From contig JAYNIM010000008.1 in NCBI GenBank assembly GCA_038109055.1, positions 1 to 64,000 of the forward strand: a DNA stretch of 64,000 nt, read 5' to 3'. Source of the stretch: a bacterium (GTDB lineage Bacteria; Margulisbacteria; Marinamargulisbacteria; GCA-2716485; JAYNIM01). This document shows, one piece after another, positions 40,973-64,000 of this stretch (within the stretch, counting starts at the first letter, position 1; the number at the start of each line of letters is the position of its first letter). The position numbers and the translations under genes are program-made. A model generated the notes under the pieces. That model searched no databases and was not told where the DNA came from. It was given only the letters and a program-made list of their open reading frames with translations.

Positions 40973-41935
40973 ATGGGCAAGTTTTTTATCATTTACGGAG
41001 ACGAACCTTTTTTTATTGAGCAAGAGGTTCAAGCAGTAAAGTCGGCGTATAGCTCTGAACAAGTAGAGGTCATGGAATCACAGGTGCCCTTATCACACTT
41101 ATACCAAAATGTGGCCTCAGACAGCTTGTTTGGAGCCCGCAAATTAATTGTGATCAACAATCCTTGGTTTCTGTTAAAAAAAACAGAGGAAAAACAATTA
41201 ACGATGCTGTGGGAAACCTTAGAAACACTCAAAACGGTGGACCACGCCTTGTTACTATATTGCAATGGCAATATTGATCAGCGTCTCAAGCAGGTCAAAA
41301 CTATCTGCAAATATGCAGACGTAAAAATCTGTAAGGGGTTTAAAGCCTGGGAACAAGGGAAACTATTGGCATGGATCAAACAACAGTTACAAAAAGCTGG
41401 CAAACAGGTCACGCAGGAGGCCTTGCTGGCATTAGAACATACGGGAGGCGTTCATTTACAACATGTCGCAAAAGAGTGTGAAAAACTTTGCATATATGTG
41501 GGTGAAAAAGCAAAGATTGAACTTGCAGATGTACAAGCCGCTTGTTCAGGATCGGCGGCAACTGTGTTTAAATTCAACGAAGCATTTCAACAAGCAAATT
41601 ACCAACAAAGCATGGAGTTGGTGCATAGCTTACTTGAACAAGGAGAAGATCCTGTTCGATTGATTGGGTTGATGGCCAGTAATTTTCGCTTTTATTTACA
41701 CGCACTTAGCCTCATCAATGAAAAGAAATCTACTGCAGAGATTGCCAAAGAGTTACAAAAAAATAGCTACTATTTGCAAAAGGTACTTCCGGCAATCAAA
41801 AAAGGCTTTACAATCGAAACATTAAAACAATCGATCATTCACTTAGCAACGCTAGATTTTCAGATTAAATCAGGCCAAATAGCCGCAAAACGAGCTGTTT
41901 ATCTGGCCATTAGCGGACTTTCTGGTCCATCATGA
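40973..41935 (+). CDS. holA: DNA polymerase III subunit delta
   Basis: IYGDEPFFI, SLFGARKL, KECEKL, VFKFNEA, GEDP, DFQIKSG. Confidence 0.88.
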   Translation: MGKFFIIYGDEPFFIEQEVQAVKSAYSSEQVEVMESQVPLSHLYQNVASDSLFGARKLIVINNPWFLLKKTEEKQLTMLWETLETLKTVDHALLLYCNGNIDQRLKQVKTICKYADVKICKGFKAWEQGKLLAWIKQQLQKAGKQVTQEALLALEHTGGVHLQHVAKECEKLCIYVGEKAKIELADVQAACSGSAATVFKFNEAFQQANYQQSMELVHSLLEQGEDPVRLIGLMASNFRFYLHALSLINEKKSTAEIAKELQKNSYYLQKVLPAIKKGFTIETLKQSIIHLATLDFQIKSGQIAAKRAVYLAISGLSGPS

Positions 41936-42781
41936 GACCCATTCTAGCGAGGAATAGCCAAAGAAAGAGGCAACAGAAAGAGCTTTTTCCGCCTGGGAAA
42001 GCGATTTTTTATCAGCTCCTTTAAGATGATATAAATCAGAAATATTCATAAAATCAACACTCATGATGCCAGGGTTTTGATACGAATAGTGAACACGAGA
42101 GGACCAGTTTTTGATATGGCAGACATACACCGGTTTTTTATGGGAAAGATGCTGATCAATGAAGGGGAAAAGTGATTTAGAGACCTGGAAATGGTCACGA
42201 TAAACTGGATGATGCAGGCCTTCGTTCGCATAGGCATAGGTAAGATATCCCGAACTTAACAACTGGGAGAGTCGGGATTGCTGTTGTTTGAAGCGTTGAT
42301 CAGGAAAGCTCACCCAAGATAAGGGCCAAGAGATATGCAGGCAACAGATATTCAACAGACCAAAGGTGCGCATAAAGCCAGCAGGTCGAGGAATAAGGAT
42401 CAATTGTGGAAAATGGGCAAACAAAAACAAGGCTTGCCAGGGATCTTCTCGAAGCCCCAATATAAGGCTGCCAGGAGGTAAAGGAGGGATTTTTGTGTTG
42501 TGTTTAAGCGTTCTAATGCCTCGACAATACAACAAAAAACGACATTGCCATTGCAACAAAACAGCCAGAGCTCGCTTTGTCATAGACGGTAAGAGCAAGA
42601 GAAAGGGACAAAGGCATAAAAAAGACACATAAAACAAAAAACAAACAACAGCAACGACAAAAAGCAAACGCAAACCAAAGAAAGAACGTTGTTGAACAGC
42701 ATCATAATGCCTAATCGCATGCTGTAATTTTACCTGGTGATGGGCCCGTTCACGCTGCCAGTCTGGTGGATAGTCTGACAT
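41930..42781 (-). CDS. Membrane protein with a degenerate PlsC/LPLAT-like acyltransferase fold
   Basis: N-terminal TM, then spacing typical of LPLAT blocks (GIRT..PPGSLIL; YANEG for FPEG; KPVYVCHI), but no HxxxxD. Confidence 0.5.
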   Translation of the reverse strand: MSDYPPDWQRERAHHQVKLQHAIRHYDAVQQRSFFGLRLLFVVAVVCFLFYVSFLCLCPFLLLLPSMTKRALAVLLQWQCRFLLYCRGIRTLKHNTKIPPLPPGSLILGLREDPWQALFLFAHFPQLILIPRPAGFMRTFGLLNICCLHISWPLSWVSFPDQRFKQQQSRLSQLLSSGYLTYAYANEGLHHPVYRDHFQVSKSLFPFIDQHLSHKKPVYVCHIKNWSSRVHYSYQNPGIMSVDFMNISDLYHLKGADKKSLSQAEKALSVASFFGYSSLEWVS

Positions 42782-43315
42782 CTAAATCTCAAGTCCTTGT
42801 GCCTGATCTGACACAATTTTACCTTCGCGAAGCGTTAATTTATTTAGGTTCGTTTGACGATGTTTTAAGTGGGGCGTATTCGCACTGGGTTTAGAAGAGG
42901 TCGTTTGAGGAGATTGAGAGAGTTTGTTATCCACCGAGGGGGCCTTCTTTTTGAGAGTATGTCGCTGTGGCGTGGTTGAGCGAACTTGTATCGAACTAGA
43001 AGATAACGAATCAGATGGGGCTGAGGAGGAAGAAGGCCTAGAGGGCCTAGACAGAGGTTTAGGGGGTGTTTTGGGAGGAGAGGTAGGTACAGAAGGAGAT
43101 GGAGGATCAGAAGGGGGCTGAGACCTAGCGGGTGTAACAGAGGGAGGCTTAGGGGGTGAGATAAGTTGATCTGCGTCAAAGGGCACTTCAACATAGGGCT
43201 GAGACAGCCGGCGTTGAGCATCACGCAAAAAGTGTTTTAATGGCACAAATAGTTGTTGTTGTAGCACCTGCCCTAAACTAGAGGTGGAGGCGTCATCTGC
43301 TGCATCCTTAGACAT
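42782..43315 (-). CDS. Pro/Ser-rich, largely disordered hypothetical protein
   Basis: 177-aa ORF tightly packed between neighbours (0-3 nt gaps). Confidence 0.65.
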   Translation of the reverse strand: MSKDAADDASTSSLGQVLQQQLFVPLKHFLRDAQRRLSQPYVEVPFDADQLISPPKPPSVTPARSQPPSDPPSPSVPTSPPKTPPKPLSRPSRPSSSSAPSDSLSSSSIQVRSTTPQRHTLKKKAPSVDNKLSQSPQTTSSKPSANTPHLKHRQTNLNKLTLREGKIVSDQAQGLEI

Positions 43316-43318
43316 GGT

Positions 43319-43666: not shown

Positions 43667-46600
43667 TTACACCGTATTTTTTTGGGGGGCCTTTTTTTTA
43701 GAAGACCTACCAACATAATATGTTTTGATCTGATGTTTTGAAGCCGAATCTAAGAAAGGTAAAAGCAAGGTCAATAAGCGCTGAAAATCTTGGGGCTGTT
43801 GCTGAGACCGAGGTTGAGTCATATGCTGAGTAAGAGTCGCTTGAAATGTCGAAGAAAGAACAGGGTCTATTTCTAATAAGCTCTGCCATAATGTATGAAA
43901 AAAAGACTGATGTTTGAAATGACCTTGTGATAACAAACGTTGTAAAATAATCAAAGCTTCAGGTACCTTGGTATCCAGCATCTGGTCTAAATGTCGGACA
44001 AACGCAGAGACAAAGTCCGGATCTCTCAAGGCATGATGAAAGAGTTTCTTTTGGGTAATAGACAAGCCCTGACTCCGAGAGAAACGAAGCATCCAAGTAG
44101 AGGTATCAATAAAGGAGTTATCATCCGGAGAAGGGGAAGGCGGCAATTCCGCAGAGGAGAACGGGACTGACTCTGTAACAGAGGCCCACTGACATCCTAA
44201 GGCCAAATACAGCTCAGGCACATCATCCAAAGGTATCGACGCGGTTTTTGATTGTTCAATAACAAGCGCAGGAAGATGTGCATATTGTGGATTAAGTAAG
44301 GCCATATCTAACAACGCTTTCTTTAACGATGGCGAACGAAATGCCATAAACCACGACTTGGCAGGGAGAGATGACGCTGTTTTGCAGAGAGCCTGAGAAA
44401 AACAGGTGTTTAATCCTTCTTGAGAATCAAAAAGCAGGAACAAGGCCTGGCTATGACGGGGGTCTTGCAAAATAAGATCCAGCAATGACGAACAGTGCTC
44501 AGCCGGCAATTTTTGGCAAGCACTGGCAAAAACAACCGCTTTATCGGTGTGTTGAGTAAAGCGTAGCAAAAAACATAATTGAGCAAGCAGTAAAGGGCCT
44601 GATGTGTGACAACGACCATGGTGACAGTCTTGAAGTGTTTGGGAGAGGTGGGTATCTAAATCAGAGATATCATGACGTTTCTGCTGAACAAAACGCAAAC
44701 ATGTTTGGCGCAACGTAGGATCCAGAAGCACTAAGAAACCCAATAAGGTCTCTGTATCAATCGAAAGGAGTACAGGGAACAACTGCCAGTCACGAACAGA
44801 AAGCCCCGGCTGAGCTTGGTTAAGAAATAAAGCTGTTTTTAAGAAGCCTATCGCAGTAGGCTGAGAGGTATAATAAGACTGAAGAGCTGGAAGTAAACAG
44901 TGTGCAGGAAGATGGCCTTGTCCTGAATCACAATAGGCCAATAATAACTGAGCATCATCCAAGGGCAAGGCAGCGGCTATCGCAGCGGGATAAGGTTTGG
45001 AGGGATCAACGAACCCAATACAACGCAATAAATCAGGCAAGGAGATACTTGGGATCGCTAGTAACATGGTAAACAAGGCACTTCTTTGCAGCGCTGTCCC
45101 TCGGGAGAAAGCCCAATGAAAAGGGTGTTGAAATCCTTTGGAATCATAGCTAAACAAAGTAGATAGCAATTGCGAAAGAGCCTCTGAGTCAGACGCAATG
45201 GTGTGAGACCCCAAGGCAAATAGTAATAACTGCTTCGACAAGGATCGCCAAATAGACTCTAAGGTATGGCCTAGCTCTTGTTGCATGAAATGCTGACGCA
45301 ACAAGTGATCAAACAAGGTCCAAAGCTGAAAAACATAGGCAAAGGTAAAGCAAGGTCGGCGAGTGAGAACATTCGCGACGTCTTTATCAACACTAAGGCG
45401 AAAACGTGCTTCATAAGGGCGCAATAAAGAGAGGAGCTCCTTTAAATGAGAGAGCCCCAATGTAGGAGTGGAAACCGTATCCAAGCCAGAAAGTGCCAAG
45501 GCATCAATACGGTTAAATTGGTCATGAGTTTGAGAAGAAAAATAGCCGGTCATGCGGGTTAGGGCATGACGAAAACGCGAAAAAGCTGGCAGCAAATGCA
45601 GGCCATCAGGAGGATGCTGAGAAAAGAGAGAGACCCAGCGCTCTTGCTGGTCACGAAGTAAATGCAAACGTTGACAAAGCGAGCGAAGATGGAGGCCAAA
45701 AGAAGCAGCCAAGGACTGCAGGGGAGCATGTTGCTGCAAAACACCTTCATGCAAACGCGCGGTAGGATAGGAAGAGGCATTAATATAGCCCTCTTTTTTC
45801 AGCGATTTAAAGAGCGATCGACACGAAGAAGCCGCCAAGGGCTGTCCCGTATCAAGACGTAAGTAGTGAAACAGCGAGGCAGAAATACGGCCATGAAAGG
45901 AGGTGAAAACAGAAGTAAACAAGGTGGAGTCCAAGAGCCACAAGGCCCAAAGCATGGTCAATCGATGACGTTGATCCATACGACGAGCCAAGATCATCAT
46001 GAGCCAGTGGTCAGGCGTTGGTGTATGTAAACAAGACAAAATTGCAACGGCATGACGCAGTAAAGGTTGAAGCTGATCAGTGATAGAGGAGGGTAAGAGA
46101 TCAAAAAGGTCCTGATAGAGTTTATGATGAGGAAAGTGAGCACAGGCCAGACAAAATTGAACAAAGTAACGGGGGTGATAATAGAGGCCCTTAACCAATA
46201 ACTCGGGACACGTCATCAGAAAGGTAGGGATACGCGCCAAGTGTTTTTTGTCTTGAAAAACAGACCAGGGCTGTTCTAAAACGGATTCAAGTTGAGAACG
46301 GGTACGGCAATGGGTATATAACTGTTTCAGTAAGGCCGCATCGATCTCTGGCAGTAAAGACGTCAAGGTAGAAAACTCAAGCTCAGATAAGCTCCCTAAA
46401 AAGGCTAACCAACATCCAGAAGCCTGCCATAAGCGAAGAAGCGAGGGCTGGGTATCTAGTCGCGCGGTGATGACAGTGTGCAACCCCGTCCCGAAGAGAT
46501 CTTCCTGAAAAGCGTAGCAACGTTGCAAAGAGACCTGCAAGCGGCGATTTGTGAGGCAAGGATCGCTTGCTTCGTAGAATACGGCCATCGCATGACAGGC

Positions 46601-49600
46601 CGCAAGCCAGAACGGTCGTTGTGCCAACTCAGTCAAAGGCTGAGAAAGTAGCGCCAGAAAGTCCGTATCAGATTGCGACAAGGCGTCAGAAACAAAGGCA
46701 TGATCACCGGCCAAAGTATAGAGCCGCTGCAACACCTGCAAGCTACGTTGACTATGATAAGCCGTCAGGTCAAAACGAAGCGAGCCAGACAAGGTGACAG
46801 AAGAATGGCCCTGCAACCAAACCTGAAGCTGAGAGAGTGGTGTTACATACAATAAATAGACATGCAACAAAGCAGATTGCTGGGGCCATTGAGAGACAAC
46901 ATAGGCAACTTCGAGCAGCGAAAAGAGCGAGGCTAACGAGGGGTCAACACAGCTTAAGGAAAAACAGTCTTCGATCAGCTGACGTTGCAAGGTGCCAGGG
47001 GGGGAATCGGGCGTCAAACTCTCTAAGGCCAACAAGGCTTTGGGGCGACCCATATCGTTAAAACGAGAGAGCAGCGCTTTAACAACCAACGCATACACCG
47101 ATTCAAAACAGGCCATGGCATCCTCCGAAAGAGAGGCAAAACTGAGATCGACTAAGGCTGCAACAAGATCTTCAGACAAGGAAGAGGGGGCAAGTTGTAG
47201 AGGGGCTAGGTCAACACGATCATCAAACAAGAGATCCTCATCCTCCGTATCCTCACTAGACGAATGGCTCTCACGCTGCTGAGCCTTTGGATGGGGGGTA
47301 TTCGGATCATCATCGTCAATAGAATCAAGATTATCTGAAAGATGAGACAGTTTTGAGCGGAGAGTAGGCGATAAAAATTGGGTATAAGCAGTACGTAAAG
47401 TAGCGGTTGCCTCATCCTGCTCCATAAAGTGATTAATATCAAATTGTGGCAAAATATGAGGCGAGCTAGGATTTGCCACAATAGAGTCTAGAGAAGCGGC
47501 AATCGCAAAGGTATTAATAGCGACGTCACCTGGATCTTTAGGTTCTTTAATATATTTTTGTATTAATTTCTCAATTCGCTTTGACTCAGCTTTATCCAGA
47601 GAGGAAAAATGTTTTTGAAACTTTTTTATATAGGCTTGGGCATGTGAAACAATCTTAGAAGCAACAGCAGGGTCTTTTGCATCATCGCTTTCAGCAAATT
47701 TTTCAGCATATTCCTGGGCTAAATTCTCTACAGCAAAAGCCATCGATTCAGCTACAGGAGCCCCAGGAACAGGCGCACTTCCATCTGTACTAACTGCTTG
47801 AGCAGAAGTCGGAGTAGTTTGAGGCCCAAGAGCAGCCAAAGCTACAGGACCCTGAGTTTGAGACCCAGCAACAGCCATAGTTCCAGGACCCTGAGTATTT
47901 TGAGACCCAGCAACAGCCATAGTTCCAGGACCCTGAGTATTTTGAGGCCCAGCAACAGCCATAGTTCCAGGACCCTGAGTATTTTGAGGCCCAGCAACAG
48001 CCAGGCCACCAGCATTACCTGCTGGATTAGGAGAATCTGGGGCTTGTTTTTTATAAGGCTCCATACGCAAGACAAGTTGATCCCTTTTGAATAAATCGAC
48101 TTCATCTTTATCTTTTTTTCTAAGAACCTCATAGGCCTCATCTTCAGTGTCAAAATCCTCAAAACCAGATAGCTGAGCAATGTCGGCATTAAAGGCAAGA
48201 CTATCTCCTCTGAGAACATGGCCCAAAAAGCGCTTCGTTTCATCCCTAAGAATACCCCCGCCTCCTTGGTCATTAAGGTTTTTGACCCCTTCCAGGATCC
48301 TTTCTTTCGTTTGTTTATCTAAAATAGCAAAGTCTTTCTTAAGCGAAATTAAGGCATTTAAGGCCCGTTTTTCTTCGATAATAGTTTGAGGGCTTCCGGG
48401 GTCGCCAGAGGCATACTGCATTTGCCCCCACATATAGCCAATAAATTCGCGGGCCAAGACGCTAGCATTGACTGAGTCATCAGCGCGTCGCTGTAGACTT
48501 TTAAGAAACGATGAAGGGTGATCCGTCAAATGTGTCGTTTGTTCTGAGGGTAAACGAGATAGATAAGCAGGATTCTCACGGTCATCCTCATCAGCAACCT
48601 CTAATCGAGCTTGAGTGAGTTGGTCAAATAGCTGAGAAGCTATCGGATCTTTAGCCTTTCTAGTACGAAATGTGAATCCCTTTTTAGTTCCTTCAAAATC
48701 GATGCCCACTTTCTTTTTTCGTAAGGCTTCAATATGGTCATCATATAGGGCGAGTCCTTGTTTTGAATCAGAGCTATGCAACAATTTGAGGGCCTTTTTA
48801 GGGTTTATGGAGCTCGTCCCCCCCGCACCCATCTGCCAGTTAAGTTGGCTTTTATTCAAGCTTAACATTGAATACGCTAAGCCAATATCTTCAAAGCTAA
48901 GCGTGTCAGAGTCAAAGGAAGGCTCATCTGTCGCGCCAAGGGCATTCAGGACATTTGCGATGTTGTTAGACAAAGTTGAATCAAGGGGATTAGAAAGGCC
49001 AGTAGAGCCAAGAATTTGTACAAGATTCTGTGATGTCGTATTCCCAGATAAAAAGTTGGCTACATCGTTCTTGTTAAAACTGCCTTGACTTAGACCCTCC
49101 CGAAGTTTCTTAAAAATAGTAGAGTCATCTGATTTAAGTTTCAGCAACTCTTCCAAGGTAGTTTCTAAGCCGCCTTCATCGCTATCACCTGATAGTTCTT
49201 TCAACTTAGAAACCAAGGACCCATCATCGTCCTCAAATGTATGCGCACTCCCTGTTTGTAAGACATCTCCCAAAATTTGACGCGCTTCTTTTGAGCGAAA
49301 ATACTTGGAAGAAGACGAATCAGCATAGTCCCGATAGGCGTCATAGCTCTGTGTAAGTTTCTGTACCATCTCACGTCTTTCCTTCAATCCTGTGAGTCCT
49401 TTCGAAAACCCACCCTTACCCTTAGAGTCTTTTCCAAAACCGTGAATTGCCGTCTCAAATTGAGCAATAGAATCTTTAATAGAGGCCGTCGTTGAGTTAG
49501 CGTTAGCATGCTTAGCAGCTAATTGGACCGCATGTTTGCGAACCTCAGCAGCGGAGGTTTTAGGATCAATAAAGCCAACCAGTTGCGCCATGAGTGTATC

Positions 49601-52600
49601 CTCTGCATTCTTGTCAGGGAGTATAGAAGTAAGGCCTTGTTTTTGCTCATCTGAAAGCTTAGTACCCCCGCTAAGAAGCGCCTCTCGTTTGCCAGGATCT
49701 GTAGCATCTCTAGCAATTTTAAGACCATAGCGCAAGATACCATGAATCTCTTTTTTGCTTTTGTGAGATTGAATAGCCGCCGTTAAGCCAAGTTTATCAA
49801 AGATCTGCGAAAGTCCTTCAGCCGCATCTTGTTTTATATCATCAGATGTTGTTGTTGAAGGGACATCCCCCAAAGCCATTAATACCCTCAGTTCTTGAGA
49901 TGTAGGAGCCTTATTTTGACCATCTGTATCATCAAAATGGTCACTGACTGTTGTCTTGATGTTCTTAATATTCGCAAAAGTTGCAATTCCAGCCATATCC
50001 CCCACCTCAGCCGAAGGCTCATAAGCAGAGCCATGCTGTAAAATATGTCTACGGTCGTCTTTTTCAGTCCTCACAGCCTCTTTAAGGATGTCTTGAGGGT
50101 CAGTGGGGTTAGGGTCAGTCATAGGCCAAGCATGGCGTGTCATGCCCGTAAGCCCAACAAATCCATCTTTCAATAAGGCCTGACTGTCCTTAGTGTGAGA
50201 AGAATTATTTACCAAAACGTCCAGAAAGGCAGTAAGATAAACCCAGTTATGGGGGAATATTAGTTTGATAAGACTTACGGGTAAAGACAGACTTAATAAC
50301 ACCCTTCTTAGTAGATTGAAAGGTTTGTTAGTAGGAATATCGGTTACAAGCCAGTTATGCATGTTTGTAAACGTTCGACCAATAGTAGAATTACTCCATT
50401 TTTGTCCAACTTTAAAAGAAAGATCCTTAGCGTCTCGGGACAAACGTGATTCTATGAATGGAGACGACAGAATATCTCCCAGGCCACCAATAATGTGACT
50501 TGTAACATCACCGACTTTTGCGGTCGTAGAATCTGGTTTAGGGTTTATCTTAGATGAGATATAGGATAAAACTTCACCTGGTACAGAAACTGGAAGAGAG
50601 GCCGCCGCCAAAATGCCATTCAGAAGCATACGTTTCTTTTTGTGACGTTTTTTGACAGCATTAACAGCATTTTCTTTTTCTTTTTCTTTTTCCCTTTTAA
50701 TAAATACTTCTTTATAAATAGAGTCTAAGAGTGGGATATCAGTATTTGGTTTATTTTGTCTAAAATCATCAGCAGCCATCCCATATCTAGTTGCATCATC
50801 AGCAAATTTATTTTGTTGGGACGTGTTTAAGTCCTGGAATTCCAAACGAATTTCACTCGCTTTTTCTGGGTTAGTCTTTTTTTCCCATTCCTCAGCAAAT
50901 TTCTCCTCAAGTTCAGCATCACTAGGATGAAAGAGGGCCTTTTGATCAGAAGGCATCTTATCAAGATCATTGATGGGATCCAAATTAGCAAGTTTCTTCG
51001 CATGCTCCTTAACTTCTTGGGGGGTCATAAGGGCACTTTTACCATCAACCCCCATTTTTTGTGCCAGTGCACGTGTGAGCGGATTAATAAAGGGCGTCTC
51101 ACCCTTATTCCAGTCATCTTCCTGGCCATCTGCAAAGAGAATATTGTTTAAATTTTTGTCATGCATAATATCAAGACGGCGTAATTTTTTTTTCTTCTTA
51201 TCTAATAAAAGGAAGGGAATAGCGCGTAATGTATTAACAAAAACAGCGGCTGTTGTAGACGTAGGGCTTGTTTTATTAAGGTAACGCTTGAGTAGAAATC
51301 TTTCGAAAACCTTTTGCATGAAATGTTGTAATGAGAGACTAATGTCAGTGGAAAACATACCTTGAAGAGCTTTCTGTTCTTTTAATAGTTCTTTTCGGAT
51401 CTGAACATTTCCTTTCATAAGGTCGGCCTCAAACATCAAGTTTTCCATATCAGCAGTGGGCAGTTGATCACCTGAGATGCCTCCAGCATCTCCAAGATCA
51501 GACCCATCTTGAAACATATCTTCCGAATCAAAGGAACTTTGAAGAGCCCCTTCAGACTTAGCAAGATTACCCAATATTCGTGCGATGAATAGTTGCAAAA
51601 ACCCTGTATTTTCCGAAAAGCCCTGCGGGAACACGAGTTTATTAAAGATGAATTTAAGTTTTCGTGCAGAATTATTGGAGCTAAAAAGATTATTCTTGAA
51701 TTTCAACTTGAATTTAATTCGCAGCCATTTTTTACTAAGAGCAGCCGTGGCTTTTTTTCCCTGCGAGGACGACATAACACGACCCCCAAACGCCTTAAGA
51801 CCTAAGACCCCCATTTTTGTGACAAATTCAAAAACAATAGAACGAATATCATTCACAGCACGGTCGCGAGACTCTTTAAGTTGTTCTAGCTTAGCGGTTA
51901 AACGATCAAGTTTTCGTGATAACAAAGATTGAAAAGCTCCCATGCCCTTTTTTGACATTGAAAAAGCATTACCTATCACAGCACCTTGGCCAGCAACATC
52001 ACTAGCACTTGCTAGCGTTTGCATGGCGCTGTCAAAAATATCCATGACCATGGTGGCACGGTTTTTCTGTTTCTTGAGTTCTAATCGTTTCTTAATAAGG
52101 GCCCCACGGTTGATAATGGTGGTTCCCATAGAAGACGTTTTAATCAATTGTGCGTCATTAAGCTTAGTCTCAACCGTGCTGCCTCCCACATTTTTAACAA
52201 TATTAGAGGCACGAAGTCCGTCATCTTTTTCTCGGTTTAAGGCAGCATTTTTCTTTTTATCGTCAGTGTCGGATACGTCGTCAGTAGAGGCAGCCAATGT
52301 ATCATCAACAGGAAAAAAATCAGTGAGTAAATTAGAGTGTTTAGAAGAAGCAGCATCACGAAGACTAAAAAAACGATACAAGCCCACAACAGCTGTAGCA
52401 ACTGTTTTAATCCCCTTAACCACTCGCTGGGCCGAGATTAACTTTTCTAATTTATCTTTCATGGAGGTTTTGGTTTCGGCTGTAGCACCAACAGCCGAAG
52501 CAATAACATAAGAACTAATAGCGGCAAGGTACACAGTATCAACAGCCGTCTCAAGGGTGAGGGTGGTTTTTGTGGTCAAATAATCATTATAAAGCTGTAC

Positions 52601-55600
52601 TTGTGCTGAAAGCTCCTCAACAAATGCAGAGGATAATGCTTGTTGAACCTGAGAATACGCATCAAGGGCCTGCATGGCTTGTTGCATAACACCTTGACTG
52701 GAGCGATTTTCAACGCCTGAAAAGTCTCTTATGACCTTATCAACAGATTTGCGCAGGGTGTCTGTATACATGTTAATCAACTGAAATAACTTTAAACGTT
52801 GAAGATAATCAACATTCATTTTTTCATCCATAAGGGCAAGGTTTTCAAAATTAAGCTGGGAAAAATTAAGAGCAAAATCAAACAAAGCACTCCCGTCAGT
52901 ATCATATTGAGACTCAATAGACCCATCATAAGCACGGACATCATTTTTAGTAGAATCAAAAATGCCAGTCTTAAACGTTTGTGAAGAGTTCTCAAAACGA
53001 CCAGAGCGATTAATAAAGTTAGGCTGACCCTCTTCAAGAGGTTCCAAGGAACGAAAGGTGCCAAAATTAGGGACATAGGACCCAGAGTTTGAGTCGCTTA
53101 TAAAATTATTACGAGTAGCACGGCTAGTAAGTGCGGGATAGTAAAAGGGGTCCGCAGAAACAGAGCGTGAAAAAAGTTCATCATAATTACTATCCCCATT
53201 ATTGCCATTAATATTAGGTTGAGATAAGGCACGAAGATTGTCCATGCTTTGAGTATGAAGACCGTTAAAGAAAGGGGTAGAGTCTGAAGTGTGATGATGA
53301 AAAAGGCTTAAAAAATCACGGGCGTGATAATGACGCTGCCCCTCATCAGACAAAGTGGCAGATTGACCATCAGAAGATATATCTAAATCTCTAAGCGCAT
53401 AGCTGGGTAAAAACGTATGAGGTGACGAGACCGAATTCAAGCGACTTTGATTAGGGTGGGAGGGTGAATTATACAAGGGCTCATTGTATTCATCATAAAA
53501 ATGATGGCCAGGATTACCTTGATAAAGCTCCATATCAAAAGCAGAGCTTTGGGTACGACGCCAATCAGCCAAGGTATTCATACGTTCATCAATACGCGGT
53601 TGTTCAAAATAGGTTGTACGCAGGTCAGAATAAGGTTGGGAATGAGAAAGGGGGCTTTCTACTAAATCTAAAATTAAGTCTTGGGCCTCTAAGCGTTTTT
53701 TTGCGCGCATCCAAGGAATGGGTGAAATATACGCGGCAGGCCCTGTATTTAAAATTTGTCTTAGGGCATAAAGGGATAAGGAAAAGTCAAGCATCGATTC
53801 CGAAAAGTCATAATATTTTTTTCTAATAGTTTTATTAACATCGACATTATGTTTAAAGGCAGTAATGAGCGTATCTAATTCAGATTTAAAGGTATCTTTA
53901 AGCGAGGTTTCAAAGCTAACAAGGGTAGAAAAGGCCTGTTGTAAACCATCGCGAAGTTGATCTAGAGAACTGAGAGTTAATTGATGCCTCGAACTAGTTT
54001 TAGCAAATAATTGTAAAATAGAAGCAGTTGTATTGCTAAGTGTTTCAAGGTAATGCATCCAAATATTAAAATACATCTCTAATCCCTGCATACCTCTAAA
54101 ATGGCTTTGTTCAATCATAGAAAGAGCTAAGGAATTTTTTGTAAAACCACCGCTACCCGTAGGAAGTAGGAGCGGAAGTTTTTGCGTTTCCTGCCTACCT
54201 GGGAAGGCATGCTCCAGATGTGGAATACGATAGTCAAGTAAGGCATTATTGTCATCTCCGGCAAACCCTGTACCAGTAGGCAGCGTTTCTATGCGACCAG
54301 CAGCCAATCGACGAAGAGCAATACGAGTATCATCCAGATGAAAGTAGGATTTTGCTAAAAAATCTTGACTGAGCCTATTCTTAGCAGAAGGGGTTCCATC
54401 AAAAAACAAAGAATTACGGCGATAATCAAGCTTAGGATACTGACCTAAGAGCAAATCAGTACGCGCAGCTAGGCTGCCATTGAGACGATTAGTCATCCAA
54501 AATTGATCAGGCGTAGCTTCATTAGACCCTTGATAAATAGAGTTGTCAAAAGGCTTATGTCGAGAATCATAGGGAGCATTATTATGATTGGCAGCAGAAA
54601 AAGAAGGAGAAAAATTAGTTAAGGAGTCAACACCATAAAATCCACCACCACGGCCAAGTGAAACTCGTGCGAGATCGTCTTCTTGGTCGTATAAAGGTGA
54701 CCACTTATTTTTAGGAAACAATACGGGGTAGTATTGCAGGAGATAAGGTGTTTGATAACGATAAAAGGTTTTATGAATATTATATTCTTTTTCATCAAAG
54801 GCACGATCAACGATACCAGACCCTACACGCCAAAAAACAGGGAAACTGAATTGCTTGGGAATAGGGGGAGGCGACCCAGGGGCGGACCATGCCTTACTTG
54901 CAACCTCTAGTGCGGTAGCTAAGCCTTGTGCAATGCCAAAATTAGTAATAGCCACAGTTGATTTCGTTATATTTAATGTCTGTTCAAGATTGTTTAAATA
55001 ATACTCTTGTTGATGTTTAATTAACGTATTAATCGCCTCTTTATAATCTTTGAACTGATCATTTAATTTCTCGAGAGTCTGGTTGGCAAGGGAAAATTCA
55101 GCCATAAAGCGGGAGGACATAATTTTATTAACCGTCGTTTTTACCGGACGTGACTGAGCTCCAGCAGCCTGAGCAATCCCTGCAGCAGCATCCAGTTGAT
55201 ACTGTTGGATAGCGGATAACGAAATAAACAAAAGATTTAAAAAACGTTCATAGGCATTTAATTTATCTAAAAGATCCACATACCAAAACGAATTCATATC
55301 AATAAAGGGGCTTGTACGAGTTGCCTCAGATGGAACGAGAAGTTGAGAGATACTACCAAGATCAGTCACAGAACTAATACCATTTTGGATTTGATCTAGA
55401 ATTGACGCAACAATAGAAGAATCTTCTGAAAGAACATCTTCAGCATCAATATCATTACTTTTACCAAGAATGTCTTTCGCAGAAGTACCGGGCGTATATA
55501 TCACATCAGATCGCATAGCCCCACGTTGATGACGCATAAAAAGCCTGCCGCTATCATCTTGGCCTGCACGGATACGGTCATCACGCATTTGAGGGTGAAA

Positions 55601-58600
55601 AAGGCGATAGGGTGTCGAAGCGCTTGGGTTGGAGGCAACAGCAGCTAAGTTGCCAGATAAGTCTGGTAACTGAAACGAGCCAGTAGAAAAGTCAATATTT
55701 TGGGTATCAATACGATCATACTCAAAATTAGCCACAAAACGTTGAATGGGCGCCATATCTGACGACGTATTAAAGGGATTAACCGCATCAAGTGCCGTAT
55801 TAAAGGTGGTTCTAAAAGAATCAAAAGCAGGAAAAAAATGTTCCAGATTAAAGTGTCTTACTTTATTGCCCTCAAAATCTTGGGTATAACGGCTGGTGGT
55901 AAAATCTTCTTGTGACCAAAAGGCATCATCAGGTTTGCCATCTTGCAAATTGTCCGAACCATACAAAGGATCTCGTTGCAATCGACCATTTGAATACTGA
56001 AAGGTAGACCCAGGATCAGCTAAAAGTTGGTCGCTACGATCCCTTAAAGCATGATCAAGAGACGGAATAAGTTTATCTGTATAACTATCAGACCTAAGAG
56101 TAGAGTTGTCTTGGTAAGAAAGCCGCGATTTTTGGTGAATGCGAGTCATGAAATTCGTGAAATAGGCATAGATAAAGGTCATGTTTTTTTCGGTATTTTC
56201 AGTGACTAATTTTTGTAAATGAACTCGATACTCTGCACGGGTCTTTTCAAAACCAACCCCCAAGCCATCCAATAGGTCTGTTGTTGCACCATAAATAAAA
56301 TTGGCAGCCATTTCTGCATAATTGAGATCATCACCTTCATTTTCAAATTCAACACGTGCATATTGATCAATTCTTAACTCAGCCAGTTGATGCATGACGT
56401 CATTAATAGATTTAACAGACTCAAAGATTTGGTTTCGAAGAGTTGTAAATGTCGTATTTATTTTTTGTGTTAAAGCAGAAATAGTGTTATTTAAGCCTTG
56501 AAGTATTTTTTCTTTTTCAGCGGTATCAGCACGTTTTTGAGGATCTCCAGCTGCTGCAGCTGGAATATTGGCGACGGCATCCTCCATAGTCGTAATAAAA
56601 TCACTGGCTAAGGCAACAACCATTTCGACACGTGTCAATGCATCACGGATCTCAGTTCCAAGTTTATCCAATGGATGATCAAAATAGCCGTCAGAGCTAG
56701 GCCCAATATCTTTAAAACTAAGCAATTGAATATAATCATCCATCTCATCACTGTCATAGGTGTCAACTTCACCAGCGCCAGAAATTTTATCGGTGGTTGA
56801 GGGTCCTTTAAAATATTTTAAATTGACATTAAAGAAGGTATAGTTCCCAAAAAGATCCGTTTGTCCTTTGGATTTAAGATACGCATAATAGGTTTTATCT
56901 AAGCGAATCATAAATCGGCTCTTATTATTTTTTAAAATACTATGCAAGCCATGAAGCAAGGCAGAGCGTTCGTTGGCAGATAATCCCGATGAGGGAAAAA
57001 TAGCATTCAATCGGGTAGCATCATCATCAAAAATATAATAATGAGAGCTATTATCAACCTTTGTGATAAAGCCATGTTGGATAAGATCAGCCATTAAATT
57101 AGCTTCGCCTGTTATCCCTAAGTCTTGACGCAACAAAGAAAGTTTTTCTTCTAAATCAACTGATTTTAACTTCGTGATATAATCTCCGCCACTAGAGTCA
57201 GGGTCAGGATTATCTGCGGAGGATGTTTGAAGAGCGGAAGCAGGTGGAGTAAGCGCCGCCAGAGCATCATTAAGCGCAGCTAATTCTTGAACCAATTGCC
57301 TAAATTGGGTTATTTCAGTGATTAATGTTTGTGCATTCGCCGGTAATTGAGCAAAAGACGCCAAGTCGAACATATCAGGGTGACTCGATAAAAAGTGAGT
57401 CATGTCACTCACAAGCGCAGTTAGATTTGTTTGCCACGTTTGAGCACTCTCTAAATCATTAACGGTTGAACCTGAGTTTTCAAAGGAGTTTAAAGATGGA
57501 AGCGCATAAAAAGTACCATTATTAAAGCGTATCCCTCTGGGGCTATCTTGATAATCAACAAATTGATAAATCCCTTGTTGACTCTCACGACTAACAACAC
57601 TCAAAACACTTGAAATAAGCGTCTGAATACTGGTATTTGAGCTTTCAATAGCAGCCTCTTTATCACGAATTTCTGTAAGTTTTGCTTGATAAGCCGTCAA
57701 ATCAGTTGTGGATGAAGAAGCGACCGCGGCTGTCGAGGGATCTTCATCTGCATCAATATACTGTTTATATAAAAGATATTCTGTATAACTGACAAAGTCA
57801 TACATATACGAGCGGCTATTTCCTTTAGTTTCAATATGAGGCATTCGAAAAACCTCGGCCCAGTCTTTATTAAAAACAGCGGCCTCTACATTAGCGCCCG
57901 CTTGAAAAAGATGGTCGTGTAAACTAAATTGCGGGTCATTAGGATCGTAATGATAGAGAGAACTAATAGGGGTGGTATCTTGAAGTCGATTGGGAGAGTG
58001 GCCAGCGAGTATAGAGGCATTAGGGGTAGCCCCAAAATTAACAGATTCACCAGCAAAGCCTAGGCCATATGCAGTATGAAAGTTTGCCGCAATTTCTTGA
58101 CGTTGTTCAAAATGCTGGTCATTAAACACAAAAACAGTATCAAAATCATTGTCAGAGCGAGGCTCTAAGCCCTTGCCCAAACTAGGATCTAGGACATACT
58201 GGGCCTCAGGAAGGTTTAAAAACACCAACATATGGCCCTGAGGACCATCAGACGTTTGTGCGTAACCTGCAGCAAGTTGAACCATGCGACGACTTTGGTC
58301 GAAGGAAATCCCTTTATAATCCTCTAAAACATGCAACAGTAACGAGGCCTGAACAATAGCTAAATCTTCACAGTCCCCCTGTTGTGTCGCAAACGTTTCA
58401 CCGATAGATTGCCAATGATCTGTTGAGCCAAGTGCATGAGTCGAGGTCTCAGAGACATAGCGAAAGCGTTTTTGAACGTAATTAAGCAATTTAACAGAGA
58501 GTTCTTCAATCGACATCCCAGCACTAAGCTGGCCACTCTCAAAAAGCTGCCGAACAGTGTCCCGAATATGCCCATCCTGACTATTAACCAAATATTGCTG

Positions 58601-59092
58601 TTTACGAAAGGCCCAAGCCCGAGGGGATAAGGTTGTTTCAAACGAGGATTTAAGAGAGTCCCAAGGAGCAAGGTCACGCTGTTGTTGGATTGTCATCTGT
58701 TCAAGACAGGCAAGAAGTCGGTTTTGGGTGGCAATATCAATATCGAGTGAAGAAAGAGAATCCGCCTGAGAAACAAAAAAACGTTTGAGGGCAGCAAGGG
58801 TAGTAGGCGGTAAAGGGTCTGCCGAGGCCAGAGTTGTTAAGGCTGTTTTAATGCCATCACGATTCATGTCATCATCAAAAGACAAGGCCTCAAGTTGCGA
58901 GGCCAAAGACTTTAAGGTATTGGACAAGTCAGGAGCAAGATCATAGTGTTTTGGCGCTAAGGTATCAGATGAAGGGGTGGTCTGAGGAAAAGGAATAGGG
59001 GAAACAGGACGATTATTCTGATCGGGTGTAGACAACTCAAGCGAGTCGTCTTCAGGTTGCGCGATAAACGATGAGTCAATATGTAATGCCAT
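43667..59092 (-). CDS. Giant 5141-aa protein with an N-terminal transglutaminase-like (LapG/BTLCP-type) cysteine protease domain
   Basis: Uninterrupted 15.4-kb ORF; FRYVSE..DHWQSIGETF..GDCEDLA (C241), GHMLV (H287), YVLDP (D302); remainder mostly helical and unassigned. Confidence 0.85.
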   Translation of the reverse strand: MALHIDSSFIAQPEDDSLELSTPDQNNRPVSPIPFPQTTPSSDTLAPKHYDLAPDLSNTLKSLASQLEALSFDDDMNRDGIKTALTTLASADPLPPTTLAALKRFFVSQADSLSSLDIDIATQNRLLACLEQMTIQQQRDLAPWDSLKSSFETTLSPRAWAFRKQQYLVNSQDGHIRDTVRQLFESGQLSAGMSIEELSVKLLNYVQKRFRYVSETSTHALGSTDHWQSIGETFATQQGDCEDLAIVQASLLLHVLEDYKGISFDQSRRMVQLAAGYAQTSDGPQGHMLVFLNLPEAQYVLDPSLGKGLEPRSDNDFDTVFVFNDQHFEQRQEIAANFHTAYGLGFAGESVNFGATPNASILAGHSPNRLQDTTPISSLYHYDPNDPQFSLHDHLFQAGANVEAAVFNKDWAEVFRMPHIETKGNSRSYMYDFVSYTEYLLYKQYIDADEDPSTAAVASSSTTDLTAYQAKLTEIRDKEAAIESSNTSIQTLISSVLSVVSRESQQGIYQFVDYQDSPRGIRFNNGTFYALPSLNSFENSGSTVNDLESAQTWQTNLTALVSDMTHFLSSHPDMFDLASFAQLPANAQTLITEITQFRQLVQELAALNDALAALTPPASALQTSSADNPDPDSSGGDYITKLKSVDLEEKLSLLRQDLGITGEANLMADLIQHGFITKVDNSSHYYIFDDDATRLNAIFPSSGLSANERSALLHGLHSILKNNKSRFMIRLDKTYYAYLKSKGQTDLFGNYTFFNVNLKYFKGPSTTDKISGAGEVDTYDSDEMDDYIQLLSFKDIGPSSDGYFDHPLDKLGTEIRDALTRVEMVVALASDFITTMEDAVANIPAAAAGDPQKRADTAEKEKILQGLNNTISALTQKINTTFTTLRNQIFESVKSINDVMHQLAELRIDQYARVEFENEGDDLNYAEMAANFIYGATTDLLDGLGVGFEKTRAEYRVHLQKLVTENTEKNMTFIYAYFTNFMTRIHQKSRLSYQDNSTLRSDSYTDKLIPSLDHALRDRSDQLLADPGSTFQYSNGRLQRDPLYGSDNLQDGKPDDAFWSQEDFTTSRYTQDFEGNKVRHFNLEHFFPAFDSFRTTFNTALDAVNPFNTSSDMAPIQRFVANFEYDRIDTQNIDFSTGSFQLPDLSGNLAAVASNPSASTPYRLFHPQMRDDRIRAGQDDSGRLFMRHQRGAMRSDVIYTPGTSAKDILGKSNDIDAEDVLSEDSSIVASILDQIQNGISSVTDLGSISQLLVPSEATRTSPFIDMNSFWYVDLLDKLNAYERFLNLLFISLSAIQQYQLDAAAGIAQAAGAQSRPVKTTVNKIMSSRFMAEFSLANQTLEKLNDQFKDYKEAINTLIKHQQEYYLNNLEQTLNITKSTVAITNFGIAQGLATALEVASKAWSAPGSPPPIPKQFSFPVFWRVGSGIVDRAFDEKEYNIHKTFYRYQTPYLLQYYPVLFPKNKWSPLYDQEDDLARVSLGRGGGFYGVDSLTNFSPSFSAANHNNAPYDSRHKPFDNSIYQGSNEATPDQFWMTNRLNGSLAARTDLLLGQYPKLDYRRNSLFFDGTPSAKNRLSQDFLAKSYFHLDDTRIALRRLAAGRIETLPTGTGFAGDDNNALLDYRIPHLEHAFPGRQETQKLPLLLPTGSGGFTKNSLALSMIEQSHFRGMQGLEMYFNIWMHYLETLSNTTASILQLFAKTSSRHQLTLSSLDQLRDGLQQAFSTLVSFETSLKDTFKSELDTLITAFKHNVDVNKTIRKKYYDFSESMLDFSLSLYALRQILNTGPAAYISPIPWMRAKKRLEAQDLILDLVESPLSHSQPYSDLRTTYFEQPRIDERMNTLADWRRTQSSAFDMELYQGNPGHHFYDEYNEPLYNSPSHPNQSRLNSVSSPHTFLPSYALRDLDISSDGQSATLSDEGQRHYHARDFLSLFHHHTSDSTPFFNGLHTQSMDNLRALSQPNINGNNGDSNYDELFSRSVSADPFYYPALTSRATRNNFISDSNSGSYVPNFGTFRSLEPLEEGQPNFINRSGRFENSSQTFKTGIFDSTKNDVRAYDGSIESQYDTDGSALFDFALNFSQLNFENLALMDEKMNVDYLQRLKLFQLINMYTDTLRKSVDKVIRDFSGVENRSSQGVMQQAMQALDAYSQVQQALSSAFVEELSAQVQLYNDYLTTKTTLTLETAVDTVYLAAISSYVIASAVGATAETKTSMKDKLEKLISAQRVVKGIKTVATAVVGLYRFFSLRDAASSKHSNLLTDFFPVDDTLAASTDDVSDTDDKKKNAALNREKDDGLRASNIVKNVGGSTVETKLNDAQLIKTSSMGTTIINRGALIKKRLELKKQKNRATMVMDIFDSAMQTLASASDVAGQGAVIGNAFSMSKKGMGAFQSLLSRKLDRLTAKLEQLKESRDRAVNDIRSIVFEFVTKMGVLGLKAFGGRVMSSSQGKKATAALSKKWLRIKFKLKFKNNLFSSNNSARKLKFIFNKLVFPQGFSENTGFLQLFIARILGNLAKSEGALQSSFDSEDMFQDGSDLGDAGGISGDQLPTADMENLMFEADLMKGNVQIRKELLKEQKALQGMFSTDISLSLQHFMQKVFERFLLKRYLNKTSPTSTTAAVFVNTLRAIPFLLLDKKKKKLRRLDIMHDKNLNNILFADGQEDDWNKGETPFINPLTRALAQKMGVDGKSALMTPQEVKEHAKKLANLDPINDLDKMPSDQKALFHPSDAELEEKFAEEWEKKTNPEKASEIRLEFQDLNTSQQNKFADDATRYGMAADDFRQNKPNTDIPLLDSIYKEVFIKREKEKEKENAVNAVKKRHKKKRMLLNGILAAASLPVSVPGEVLSYISSKINPKPDSTTAKVGDVTSHIIGGLGDILSSPFIESRLSRDAKDLSFKVGQKWSNSTIGRTFTNMHNWLVTDIPTNKPFNLLRRVLLSLSLPVSLIKLIFPHNWVYLTAFLDVLVNNSSHTKDSQALLKDGFVGLTGMTRHAWPMTDPNPTDPQDILKEAVRTEKDDRRHILQHGSAYEPSAEVGDMAGIATFANIKNIKTTVSDHFDDTDGQNKAPTSQELRVLMALGDVPSTTTSDDIKQDAAEGLSQIFDKLGLTAAIQSHKSKKEIHGILRYGLKIARDATDPGKREALLSGGTKLSDEQKQGLTSILPDKNAEDTLMAQLVGFIDPKTSAAEVRKHAVQLAAKHANANSTTASIKDSIAQFETAIHGFGKDSKGKGGFSKGLTGLKERREMVQKLTQSYDAYRDYADSSSSKYFRSKEARQILGDVLQTGSAHTFEDDDGSLVSKLKELSGDSDEGGLETTLEELLKLKSDDSTIFKKLREGLSQGSFNKNDVANFLSGNTTSQNLVQILGSTGLSNPLDSTLSNNIANVLNALGATDEPSFDSDTLSFEDIGLAYSMLSLNKSQLNWQMGAGGTSSINPKKALKLLHSSDSKQGLALYDDHIEALRKKKVGIDFEGTKKGFTFRTRKAKDPIASQLFDQLTQARLEVADEDDRENPAYLSRLPSEQTTHLTDHPSSFLKSLQRRADDSVNASVLAREFIGYMWGQMQYASGDPGSPQTIIEEKRALNALISLKKDFAILDKQTKERILEGVKNLNDQGGGGILRDETKRFLGHVLRGDSLAFNADIAQLSGFEDFDTEDEAYEVLRKKDKDEVDLFKRDQLVLRMEPYKKQAPDSPNPAGNAGGLAVAGPQNTQGPGTMAVAGPQNTQGPGTMAVAGSQNTQGPGTMAVAGSQTQGPVALAALGPQTTPTSAQAVSTDGSAPVPGAPVAESMAFAVENLAQEYAEKFAESDDAKDPAVASKIVSHAQAYIKKFQKHFSSLDKAESKRIEKLIQKYIKEPKDPGDVAINTFAIAASLDSIVANPSSPHILPQFDINHFMEQDEATATLRTAYTQFLSPTLRSKLSHLSDNLDSIDDDDPNTPHPKAQQRESHSSSEDTEDEDLLFDDRVDLAPLQLAPSSLSEDLVAALVDLSFASLSEDAMACFESVYALVVKALLSRFNDMGRPKALLALESLTPDSPPGTLQRQLIEDCFSLSCVDPSLASLFSLLEVAYVVSQWPQQSALLHVYLLYVTPLSQLQVWLQGHSSVTLSGSLRFDLTAYHSQRSLQVLQRLYTLAGDHAFVSDALSQSDTDFLALLSQPLTELAQRPFWLAACHAMAVFYEASDPCLTNRRLQVSLQRCYAFQEDLFGTGLHTVITARLDTQPSLLRLWQASGCWLAFLGSLSELEFSTLTSLLPEIDAALLKQLYTHCRTRSQLESVLEQPWSVFQDKKHLARIPTFLMTCPELLVKGLYYHPRYFVQFCLACAHFPHHKLYQDLFDLLPSSITDQLQPLLRHAVAILSCLHTPTPDHWLMMILARRMDQRHRLTMLWALWLLDSTLFTSVFTSFHGRISASLFHYLRLDTGQPLAASSCRSLFKSLKKEGYINASSYPTARLHEGVLQQHAPLQSLAASFGLHLRSLCQRLHLLRDQQERWVSLFSQHPPDGLHLLPAFSRFRHALTRMTGYFSSQTHDQFNRIDALALSGLDTVSTPTLGLSHLKELLSLLRPYEARFRLSVDKDVANVLTRRPCFTFAYVFQLWTLFDHLLRQHFMQQELGHTLESIWRSLSKQLLLFALGSHTIASDSEALSQLLSTLFSYDSKGFQHPFHWAFSRGTALQRSALFTMLLAIPSISLPDLLRCIGFVDPSKPYPAAIAAALPLDDAQLLLAYCDSGQGHLPAHCLLPALQSYYTSQPTAIGFLKTALFLNQAQPGLSVRDWQLFPVLLSIDTETLLGFLVLLDPTLRQTCLRFVQQKRHDISDLDTHLSQTLQDCHHGRCHTSGPLLLAQLCFLLRFTQHTDKAVVFASACQKLPAEHCSSLLDLILQDPRHSQALFLLFDSQEGLNTCFSQALCKTASSLPAKSWFMAFRSPSLKKALLDMALLNPQYAHLPALVIEQSKTASIPLDDVPELYLALGCQWASVTESVPFSSAELPPSPSPDDNSFIDTSTWMLRFSRSQGLSITQKKLFHHALRDPDFVSAFVRHLDQMLDTKVPEALIILQRLLSQGHFKHQSFFHTLWQSLLEIDPVLSSTFQATLTQHMTQPRSQQQPQDFQRLLTLLLPFLDSASKHQIKTYYVGRSSKKKAPQKNTV
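47846..48001 (-). repeat. Coding tandem repeat, 42-bp unit, 3 full copies plus one partial (AVAG[P/S]QNTQGPGTM)
   Basis: Near-identical direct repeats of tgagRcccagcaacagccatagttccaggaccctgagtattt with no spacers. Confidence 0.95.
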
Positions 59093-62800: not shown

Positions 62801-64000
62801 CAGGCGAAGACGATGGGTTTATAGCCTGATACCACTCACAGTCCCTAAACTCTTTTAATAATTGTTCAAGATCATCTCTATCCTGTACAGGCTGAGCATG
62901 TCGGTTCATACATTCTATTAAGACCTGTGGCGCAGATTCTTGAATATAGTAGTCTCTATTTTCAACGAAGGCACCTGAAAAAACTTGCTTTGCTTGATGT
63001 TCTAAAGATTTAATATAAGCATTAACCGTTTCCCAATCAGATATCCCACAAGCGGCTGATAGATACCGTCTGATAGCTGATTTAATCTGAGGAGAAAAGG
63101 TAGGAGAGCGTTCAGCATGAATCTGCTCTATAATGTTGATGAGTGAGTCCGAGTCTTTGCGCTTTTCAGAGGAATAAGCACATTGATAGATGTCTGAACT
63201 ATAGATCTCATCACATTCATCAATCAACGCATCAAATTGACGGATATCAAATACATCTTGTTTAGAATCAAGAGAACGTAGCTGTTCAAAAGCAAGTTCC
63301 GTAAATGTCGTATAATTAATCATAGATTGATGATAATCAGAATTAAAGGAAGCAGGTATCTGGAGTGTCTTAAATAGGGATTCAACACTTTTGAACCCTT
63401 GTTGAGCTAAGGGTAAGTGAGTTGTAATAACAACCACTTTTTGGCCCATCATTGCTTTAATAGCTGCTATAACAGCAAAGCAAAGTGTTTTCCCTTGGGC
63501 GGTATCCATTTGAACATTCATTAAGGACTTGTGGTTCTTGGGATCAAGTTGAGCGGTCAATGTCAGCCATACCATCGCAATTTGATTGATATGAAGTGGT
63601 TTACCAAGACTAGAGGCGGCTGCAGCATAAGCCTTTTGTAAATTGTGAAAAAGATCCTGATGTTTAGGCCTGATTTGACTTGGAGATTGAGGAGACGCAG
63701 ATTGAAGATGAGAGATAACATCCTTTAGTTCCTTTATAGAATCTTCAGATAAAGGCGACTTAATGTCTTTATTAGCCTTAGCAAGACGAGCGAAAAATTT
63801 AGACTTGTCAAAAGAAGCGTGAGCTGATGATGAAGATGCGCGAGACATTGCAGATGTCGCCCTAGTCAAGAGAGAGGATGGACCTGCAGAAGAAACGGGA
63901 ATTTGTTCCGGAGACCAGTGGACCTGTTTTCTGAAAGGATGAGATGCCGCAGAAGCAGCCGATGACCTAGAACCGTGTCCAATACGGGGTAAAAAATGCT
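59811..64000 (-). CDS. SecA-like DEAD ATPase fused to a Hanks-type Ser/Thr kinase; 5' end lies outside the window
   Basis: SecA motifs in order (QMDTAQGKT, INYTT..LAFEQLR, LIDECD, GISATA, RPILV, GRGTD, QLEGR), then ILKR, HGDIKSEN, IDFG, GPE, ADIYALG, RP; no in-frame stop between 63870 and 64000. Confidence 0.85.
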   Translation of the reverse strand, partial: HFLPRIGHGSRSSAASAASHPFRKQVHWSPEQIPVSSAGPSSLLTRATSAMSRASSSSAHASFDKSKFFARLAKANKDIKSPLSEDSIKELKDVISHLQSASPQSPSQIRPKHQDLFHNLQKAYAAAASSLGKPLHINQIAMVWLTLTAQLDPKNHKSLMNVQMDTAQGKTLCFAVIAAIKAMMGQKVVVITTHLPLAQQGFKSVESLFKTLQIPASFNSDYHQSMINYTTFTELAFEQLRSLDSKQDVFDIRQFDALIDECDEIYSSDIYQCAYSSEKRKDSDSLINIIEQIHAERSPTFSPQIKSAIRRYLSAACGISDWETVNAYIKSLEHQAKQVFSGAFVENRDYYIQESAPQVLIECMNRHAQPVQDRDDLEQLLKEFRDCEWYQAINPSSSPETVSQVTEKFVCEMNQFGFPYTKETLQSAYGELEGKLKDLNDRELENSLGFDLIPMKPDGRYSEGTYMSGITHGLLLCQYGITPKAPSLRGVTVPYVEMAKQFNSMIGISATAFSDPTDSSCIEAGSQQVMQKLLSPRTTNIVIPPREVSDIKTTHKQCSNPDQAVISAIEKEKEKHKRSTRPILVATDTLERAKALHSQLKGSFLYQGTLHNDADAKLVEEGLLRPNVIVGTLSQIGRGTDWQVNHAQGGLGFYAGEMALSPHQLKQLEGRFSIPRNAQQTPGTLKTYYCHDLSDSAQLDAKTKNYNDLFHIYKRTLLANLILPFSRMTNPLSVQIIVEASKADFYTLFDQLLDQTLDSDTVTQHLSAIFRTDLDDENHETVTKLLDNFQESIQALQSSFKDNTHRSSDNSELACVISADRHAHARHKYREFGGHPYEREVPHRRAGRRSAAPPWSGYASQRTGVDTHRTVERRLDHPPTHSVHPGRYEVHPQRPIAKSCPAHQHGSDMINRQFQRMIDNLKIPFQTITNIQEVKSYSNKLAPGVYQFEGKNAQIISQRLEDSCILKRVTAGNHTHRECTYEEALIEILATCQANPDDVLAVYRTDSEELYMVLKEKNKLPNIHLSSQVKTLLASMADLHAKNIVHGDIKSENIMQDPTTGKVQFIDFGASSLQLNGRHYAGYTRSSLTGPEPSRKDEMAPRKEADIYALGLSIYELVTGTQFPFFFDCEKQHPSELTAQFIQTHFGDIRYRPTPEEFHAALVNDISRRPVSNYLEKAAQEFCFACLRQRPEKRPNASTCVKLWDKLIQNPDLDGRAVCEQLAESERKQGYLNPCLNTTAGYLSDGSDASEGSSVFSTPSSPDFAAGHLDHRPAFRSTRPLPAFPSAPSLPPCSMPRQPAALRRRKIDSGYSYPPVVRFPRRPVPKTPSRWSTYTGTHPFPTHEQVVSYPGSGHSFSSHTGLPLPHIQDISPYTAPKRLVTAARSRRAYIQRQFA

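Follow-up and report, generated by a model that had tools for sequence, protein, structure and literature searches.

How the flagellum gave way to the injectisome is a long-standing question. The hook-basal body of Buchnera, which reportedly may secrete, reflects a reduction within one endosymbiont. It is a flagellar basal body without a filament (PMC8109811). Abby and Rocha deduced an ancestor that had SctF but lacked a secretin, and the needleless type III secretion system of myxobacteria (T3SS*) was the only form known to them; it lacks FlgBCDEK, FliEG, FlgH, MotAB and SctF (PMC3459982). T3SS* is used in contact killing (PMC12075869). We analysed a window of 64,000 nucleotides from Marinamargulisbacteria (assembly GCA_038109055.1, contig JAYNIM010000008.1, positions 1 to 64,000 of the forward strand) that encodes a protein of 5141 aa, termed here the giant. 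With a probability of roughly 60%, the giant and its conserved neighbours are outer parts of a flagellin-less, flagellum-type type III export machine, predicted to deliver on contact to another cell. Like T3SS*, this would be an early-branching, secretin-less type III system, but one that retains rod and rings and possesses a needle-like gene; unlike the basal body of Buchnera, it is found across the phylum, has an FlhA clade to itself and adds further outer parts.

A system present throughout the phylum that combines rod, rings, short hook and a needle-like protein would make the step between flagellum and injectisome testable, and this machine may represent a surviving intermediate form. If the reading is true, it would explain why Margulisbacteria are rich in uncharacterised huge proteins (PMC11573180) and would point to a host- or prey-contact lifestyle for this sister phylum of cyanobacteria, described members of which include an intracellular symbiont of Trichoplax (10.1101/568287). 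Literature searches, with supplements and the Termititenax genome paper outside their coverage, found no description of this system. That genome paper possibly refers to partial flagellar genes. In the main text of PMC6349859, neither "flagell" nor "secretion" occurs.

The source genome (G000; 1.8 Mb) is 93% complete, which bounds every gene reported below as not found in it; the window lies on its contig C8 (G000:C8:1-64000), and C1, C2, C5 and C11 are others of its contigs. The comparison set comprised 61 genomes, 23 of them of high quality, labelled in the same way (G009, G027 and so on). A search for secretion machinery, suggested by the initial annotation of the window, found a complete flagellar-type export apparatus in G000: homologues of SctRSTUV, SctN, SctJ and SctQ are all present in their flagellar form, with FlhA, FlhB, FliPQR, FliN and a FliM-like protein at C2:188-197 kb, FliF, FliE, FlgBCFG, FlgAHI and sigma-28-like genes at C1:511-521 kb, and a FliI/SctN ATPase gene set between two genes that, by their position, we take to be FliH- and FliJ-like. 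Tested as a flagellum, G000 has the MS ring, rod, L/P rings and export apparatus, but neither flagellin/FlgL, FlgK, FlgD nor chemoreceptors (methyl-accepting chemotaxis proteins, MCPs) were found. FlhA is present in 55 of the 61 genomes and in all 23 of high quality, flagellin in two of the 61. FlhA matches listed (at least 120) were all at least 75% identical; none was found in a 13-genome sample around G069 or in the viral contigs searched. The three secretins of G000 all belong to PilMNOPQ-type operons, and no SctC secretin is part of the system there, which has L/P rings instead.

With flagella, the machine shares FliF, FliE, FlgBCFG, FlgH/I/A, FliPQR, FlhAB, FliHIJ, FliN and the sigma-28-like genes; its hook protein is of only 287 aa, and it is not a flagellum because the filament genes were not found. 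With injectisomes it shares the export gate, the ATPase complex, a candidate needle-like subunit, the lack of flagellin and an FlhA that stands beside SctV. However, it keeps rod, L/P rings, FlgA, FliE and the short hook, and its candidate translocators, in place of SctE/SctB, are five repeats in one protease-bearing giant; having no secretin at its loci and lying outside the SctV clade, it is not an injectisome by membership. It is nevertheless likely to work like one, and would deliver into a target cell.

Comparison of gene neighbourhoods, also suggested at the outset, covered 36 giant-bearing stretches drawn from the 46 giant-positive genomes, and linkage was kept. The usual order is a short flgE, genes for proteins of 590, 85, 275 and 330-900 aa, and two genes for small proteins, S2 and S1; divergently follow the HEAT-like gene, the giant, a ~300-aa gene, a membrane-helix gene, and genes of ~210 and ~270 aa. 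A HEAT-like gene stands at most 3 kb upstream of the giant in 19 of the 36 stretches, and S1/S2 are near the giant in 16 (10 of the 17 whose upstream sequence extends for 8 kb); on the 3' side, the membrane-helix gene was found in 12, and the family of the 283-aa protein in 7, of the 19 stretches that reach the giant's end. Of the 37 genomes positive for S1, 36 also carry the giant, and 14 of the 15 without the giant are without S1 as well, counts in which kin are not independent. In relatives the partner operon lies back to back with the HEAT-giant side, and in G000 it lies 12 kb upstream of it, the two halves being parted by what we take to be a nusA-infB-rbfA block, in which C8:67573-69528 is presumably a translation initiation factor 2-like gene, of 651 aa only. 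The giant's locus is tied to the export machine because the FlhA-sigma operon of G027 is followed after ~4 kb by the HEAT gene and the operon with S1, and in G058 the short hook gene leads the FliN-FliP-FlhA operon.

S1 has a predicted hairpin fold and occurs in three tandem copies in G019 and G035. The S1 of G009 scored 0.92 in the ESM Atlas (195 of 256 features), with 23 of 30 matches to PF09392. By these language-model features, S1 may resemble type III needle subunits.

The giant, as first annotated, has no Sec signal peptide, its N-terminus being without a hydrophobic core, and its first 1000 residues match in 46 of the 61 genomes and in 18 of the 23 of high quality; named relatives belong to Marinamargulisbacteria and Termititenax. 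Its proposed cysteine protease proved to be a transglutaminase-like domain of LapG/BTLCP type with an intact triad: the closest Protein Data Bank (PDB) match is 4fgo (E 2.5e-8), Transglut_core was found in 22 of 27 family members, and across the 27 aligned sequences Cys241 and His287 are invariant and Asp302 nearly so. The domain shares fold family and Cys-His-Asp triad with LapG/BTLCP proteases (PDB 4fgo, 4u65), but here it forms the signal-less N-terminus of proteins of 2,000-7,800 aa; where contigs allow, the frames matched in the 46 genomes mostly span 2,000-7,700 aa. Pfam searches with the two halves of the giant gave three weak matches only, and self-BLAST did not show the repeats (R1-R5) that profiles did. 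Their order is identical in the 22 relatives used for profile building; hhalign put their homology at 84-96% for seven of ten pairs and at 19-41% for R1 versus R3-R5, against 0.1-0.5% for the protease as control. Each repeat consists of a long helix, a Gly turn and a second long helix, to which R2-R4 add a hydrophobic Ala/Gly/Pro-rich segment: the mean best 19-residue hydrophobicity is 1.45-1.61 for R2-R4, versus 0.88-1.08 for R1, R5 and the protease. R4-R5, modelled at pLDDT 58, shows the same long helix, turn and long helix, followed by a hydrophobic helix. Judged by profile search, the R4-R5 family is narrow, with 45 proteins out of 1.84 billion, 31 of them of at least 2,000 aa; more distant relatives have two protease domains and weaker repeat matches. 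For the giant's last 2,440 residues no counterpart was found among the loci retrieved or in its own proteome, and the ~300-aa gene seen after the giant in other genomes was found neither fused into the window's giant nor adjoining it. Further large ORFs (1,300-2,600 aa) lie downstream in the giant's operon at G022:C35:32805-40661, G025:C41:18796-24291 and G046:C8:10411-14259, which suggests that the variable tail may be a gene of its own. The giant looks like a conserved structural or translocator part rather than a variable effector.

In the mechanism that we envisage, S1 would polymerise into a needle that sits on rod and short hook, and the signal-less giant, chaperoned by the HEAT-like protein, would be exported through it. 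The repeats appear translocator-like, and R2-R4 could act as tandem SctE/SctB-like translocators that insert into the target membrane; the LapG-like protease may cut the polyprotein itself or surface proteins of the target, and the variable tail might confer target specificity. Protists, animal cells and other bacteria are all conceivable targets. The initial proposal that these proteins are exported independently of Sec and act on another cell is probably right in view of the apparatus and the linkage; its delimitation of the unit did not stand.

FlhA trees were built with 32 and then 38 rows; the second set omitted three long rows and some of the close relatives present in the first. Labels for myxobacterial and alphaproteobacterial rows follow their place in the tree rather than gene context, flagella were thinly sampled and Chlamydia was missing. 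Margulisbacteria FlhA and all SctV fall on one side of a branch (support 95, 99, 97/96, and 89 under C20), with the Margulisbacteria as sister, outside the SctV clade, in all trees. Their clade includes G060, whose FlhA is identical to a WOR-1 protein; the flagellar FlhA copies of G057 and G078 are placed elsewhere. On profile models, FlhA scores 769 bits as flagellar versus 656 as injectisome. We offer only tentatively, and think it doubtful as it stands, the more specific proposal of a stem-injectisome: a living sister of all non-flagellar type III systems with an SctF-type needle, which would still span the outer membrane by flagellar rod and L/P rings and whose translocon is a self-cleaving five-repeat giant polyprotein.

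Several observations pull the other way. S1 and S2 matched nothing among PDB sequences and NCBIfam, and no needle model matched; in a local HMM test AscF ranked just 13th of 934 against S1, and the Foldseek top 50 for S1 held no needle structure, a weak test for a hairpin. Sequence, profile and fold searches of the repeats gave no significant match to known translocators. The ESM Atlas leads among pore-formers (SctE, colicin and HBL, at 0.75-0.78) stay below 0.8, a level that shuffles reach one third of the time, and R2 and R3 of the window's own giant are just mildly hydrophobic. Linkage counts lean upward, because the profiles derive from genes chosen for their position in these same loci. 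Several genomes (G015, G016, G020, G055 and G060) are nearly complete and FlhA-positive, yet neither giant nor S1 was found there; the outer module is thus either highly diverged or not shared by all. In the trees, a group uniting Margulisbacteria, their own flagellar copies, Bacillota and Chloroflexota was not rejected (p 0.062), and FlhB (24 rows) placed them in an unresolved group with flagellar FlhB; with the thin sampling, this makes the sister relation to SctV a lead, not a result. Lastly, three MotA/MotB loci of G000 include genes with the FliG_C torque domain.

In one unlikely alternative, what the machine exports is an adhesin tethered to the surface or an enzyme that cuts the envelope, with LapA/LapG-like release of the giant and no injection, the repeats serving as a helical stalk. 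LapG-type proteins as the closest solved relatives of the protease fit this, as do repeats that fold as long helices without a pore match (no Foldseek match for R4-R5 at E 0.001; best VIA Z 8.0, to generic helices). Giant genes of other phyla have been linked to attack on prey cell walls (10.1101/2023.11.21.568195). Against it stand the conserved hydrophobic, hairpin-like segments of R2-R4, the needle-like subunits and the many signal-less Ser/Pro-rich proteins of the genome; Pfam found no adhesin domain in the giant.

A highly diverged rotary flagellum, in which S1 is the filament, a MotAB-FliG module the drive and the giant a cap or sticky surface protein, seems improbable to us. The rod, L/P rings and hook-like gene would be bearings for rotation, the MotAB loci carry FliF-like as well as FliG_C genes, MotB_plug occurs in 43 of the 61 genomes, and Abby and Rocha report a similarity of SctF to FliC/FlgL (PMC3459982). 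But the FliG beside FliF has N and M domains only, without the FliG_C torque domain; FlgK, FlgD and MCPs were not found; MotB was not found in 8 of the 23 high-quality genomes, all of them FlhA-positive; and genomes with real flagella hold a separate FlhA, as in the flagellin-bearing G057, whose second FlhA groups with flagellar ones. The MotA/MotB loci of G000 (C2:122379-127259, C2:149192-152051 and C1:38152-42006) each have FliF-like and/or FliG_C genes, sometimes with a FliM-like one, and in a genome without flagellin possibly constitute a distinct rotary machine.

That the six minus-strand ORFs of the window, the island of the initial annotation, act together as one unit independent of the flagellar-type machine is highly improbable and largely refuted, for despite their tight co-orientation and the Ser/Pro-rich starts of both large proteins, the SecA-like part occurs in only one of the 61 genomes, the SecA-kinase in none of the 36 giant-bearing stretches and as a singleton among the candidates scored in a large protein set, outside the conserved locus, and key partners lie beyond the window at C8:72214-79533. 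The ORFs themselves are spaced as annotated (63, 91, 33, 3 and 0 nt); the last overlaps the convergent holA by 6 nt, and at the other border, where the first exits the window, stands what is presumably a divergent purC-like gene. The SecA-kinase fusion was confirmed in Pfam (SecA_DEAD, E 7e-10; Pkinase, E 1e-22), though the C-terminal scaffold and wing domains of a complete SecA were not found, only SecA_DEAD and weak P-loop matches before the kinase. It is likely a lineage-specific insertion, one of many cargo or effector proteins, that adjoins the giant by chance. The Ser/Pro-rich N-termini held up as well: by Ser/Pro/Thr-rich start the giant ranks 11th and the SecA-kinase 24th of 935 G000 proteins. 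The HEAT label is weakly supported, by an alphaRep match and none in Pfam, and of the supposed small membrane proteins only the 104-aa one qualifies, the 177-aa protein having no membrane segment. The "dead acyltransferase" (283 aa) gave no Pfam match, for the window's protein or seven relatives, and no PDB sequence match; the gene is intact and conserved.

Table 1. Features of the window and of associated loci in G000; coordinates without contig prefix are window positions.
Feature	Coordinates	Strand	Remark
SecA-like helicase and Hanks-type kinase fusion, 1602 aa	59811..64000, on to its start at C8:64619	-	Pfam
HEAT-like protein, 187 aa	59184..59747	-	directly upstream of giant; alphaRep E 0.004
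Giant, 5141 aa, without Sec signal	43667..59092	-	class-wide family
Giant aa 150-345, LapG/BTLCP-type transglutaminase-like cysteine protease	58058..58645	-	triad Cys241-His287-Asp302
Giant aa 800-2445, five homologous helical repeats R1-R5	51758..56695	-	profile comparison
Giant aa 2701-5141, hypervariable tail	43667..50992	-	no relative found
Coiled-coil protein with single membrane helix, 104 aa	43319..43633	-	downstream of giant, conserved; alignment
Pro/Ser-rich protein, 177 aa	42782..43315	-	by position, the ~210-aa gene of relatives
Conserved membrane-associated protein, 283 aa, no recognised family	41930..42781	-	7/19 stretches
S1, needle-like small helical-hairpin protein	C8:79123-79533	-	partner operon
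S2, small helical-hairpin protein	C8:78552-79070	-	partner operon
Unknown proteins, 876, 273 and 596 aa	C8:73074-78528	-	partner operon
Short FlgE-like hook, 287 aa	C8:72214-73077	-	partner operon
Signal-less Ser/Pro/Arg-rich large ORFs (among others)	C5:43032-57257, C5:1-11307, C1:185151-194195, C1:636630-643676, C11:6881-13768

Many large signal-less ORFs with Ser/Pro/Arg-rich starts were seen in G000, a candidate cargo repertoire. Two regions (G019:C20 and G034:C49) each hold two paralogues of the giant, every one with two transglutaminase-like domains. The same protease domain occurs in short to medium-sized proteins of other classes (G057:C25:9990-11132, G057:C3:119134-122085 and stretch L117); the match on G057:C25 stands beside FlhA but was rejected as linkage, that FlhA being the flagellar copy and the protein only 380 aa long. 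Further along the window's contig, C8:90387-94865 (stretch L002:11387-15865) presumably encodes a two-partner secretion pair, a ShlB-like transporter with a haemagglutinin-like ORF that runs off the contig.

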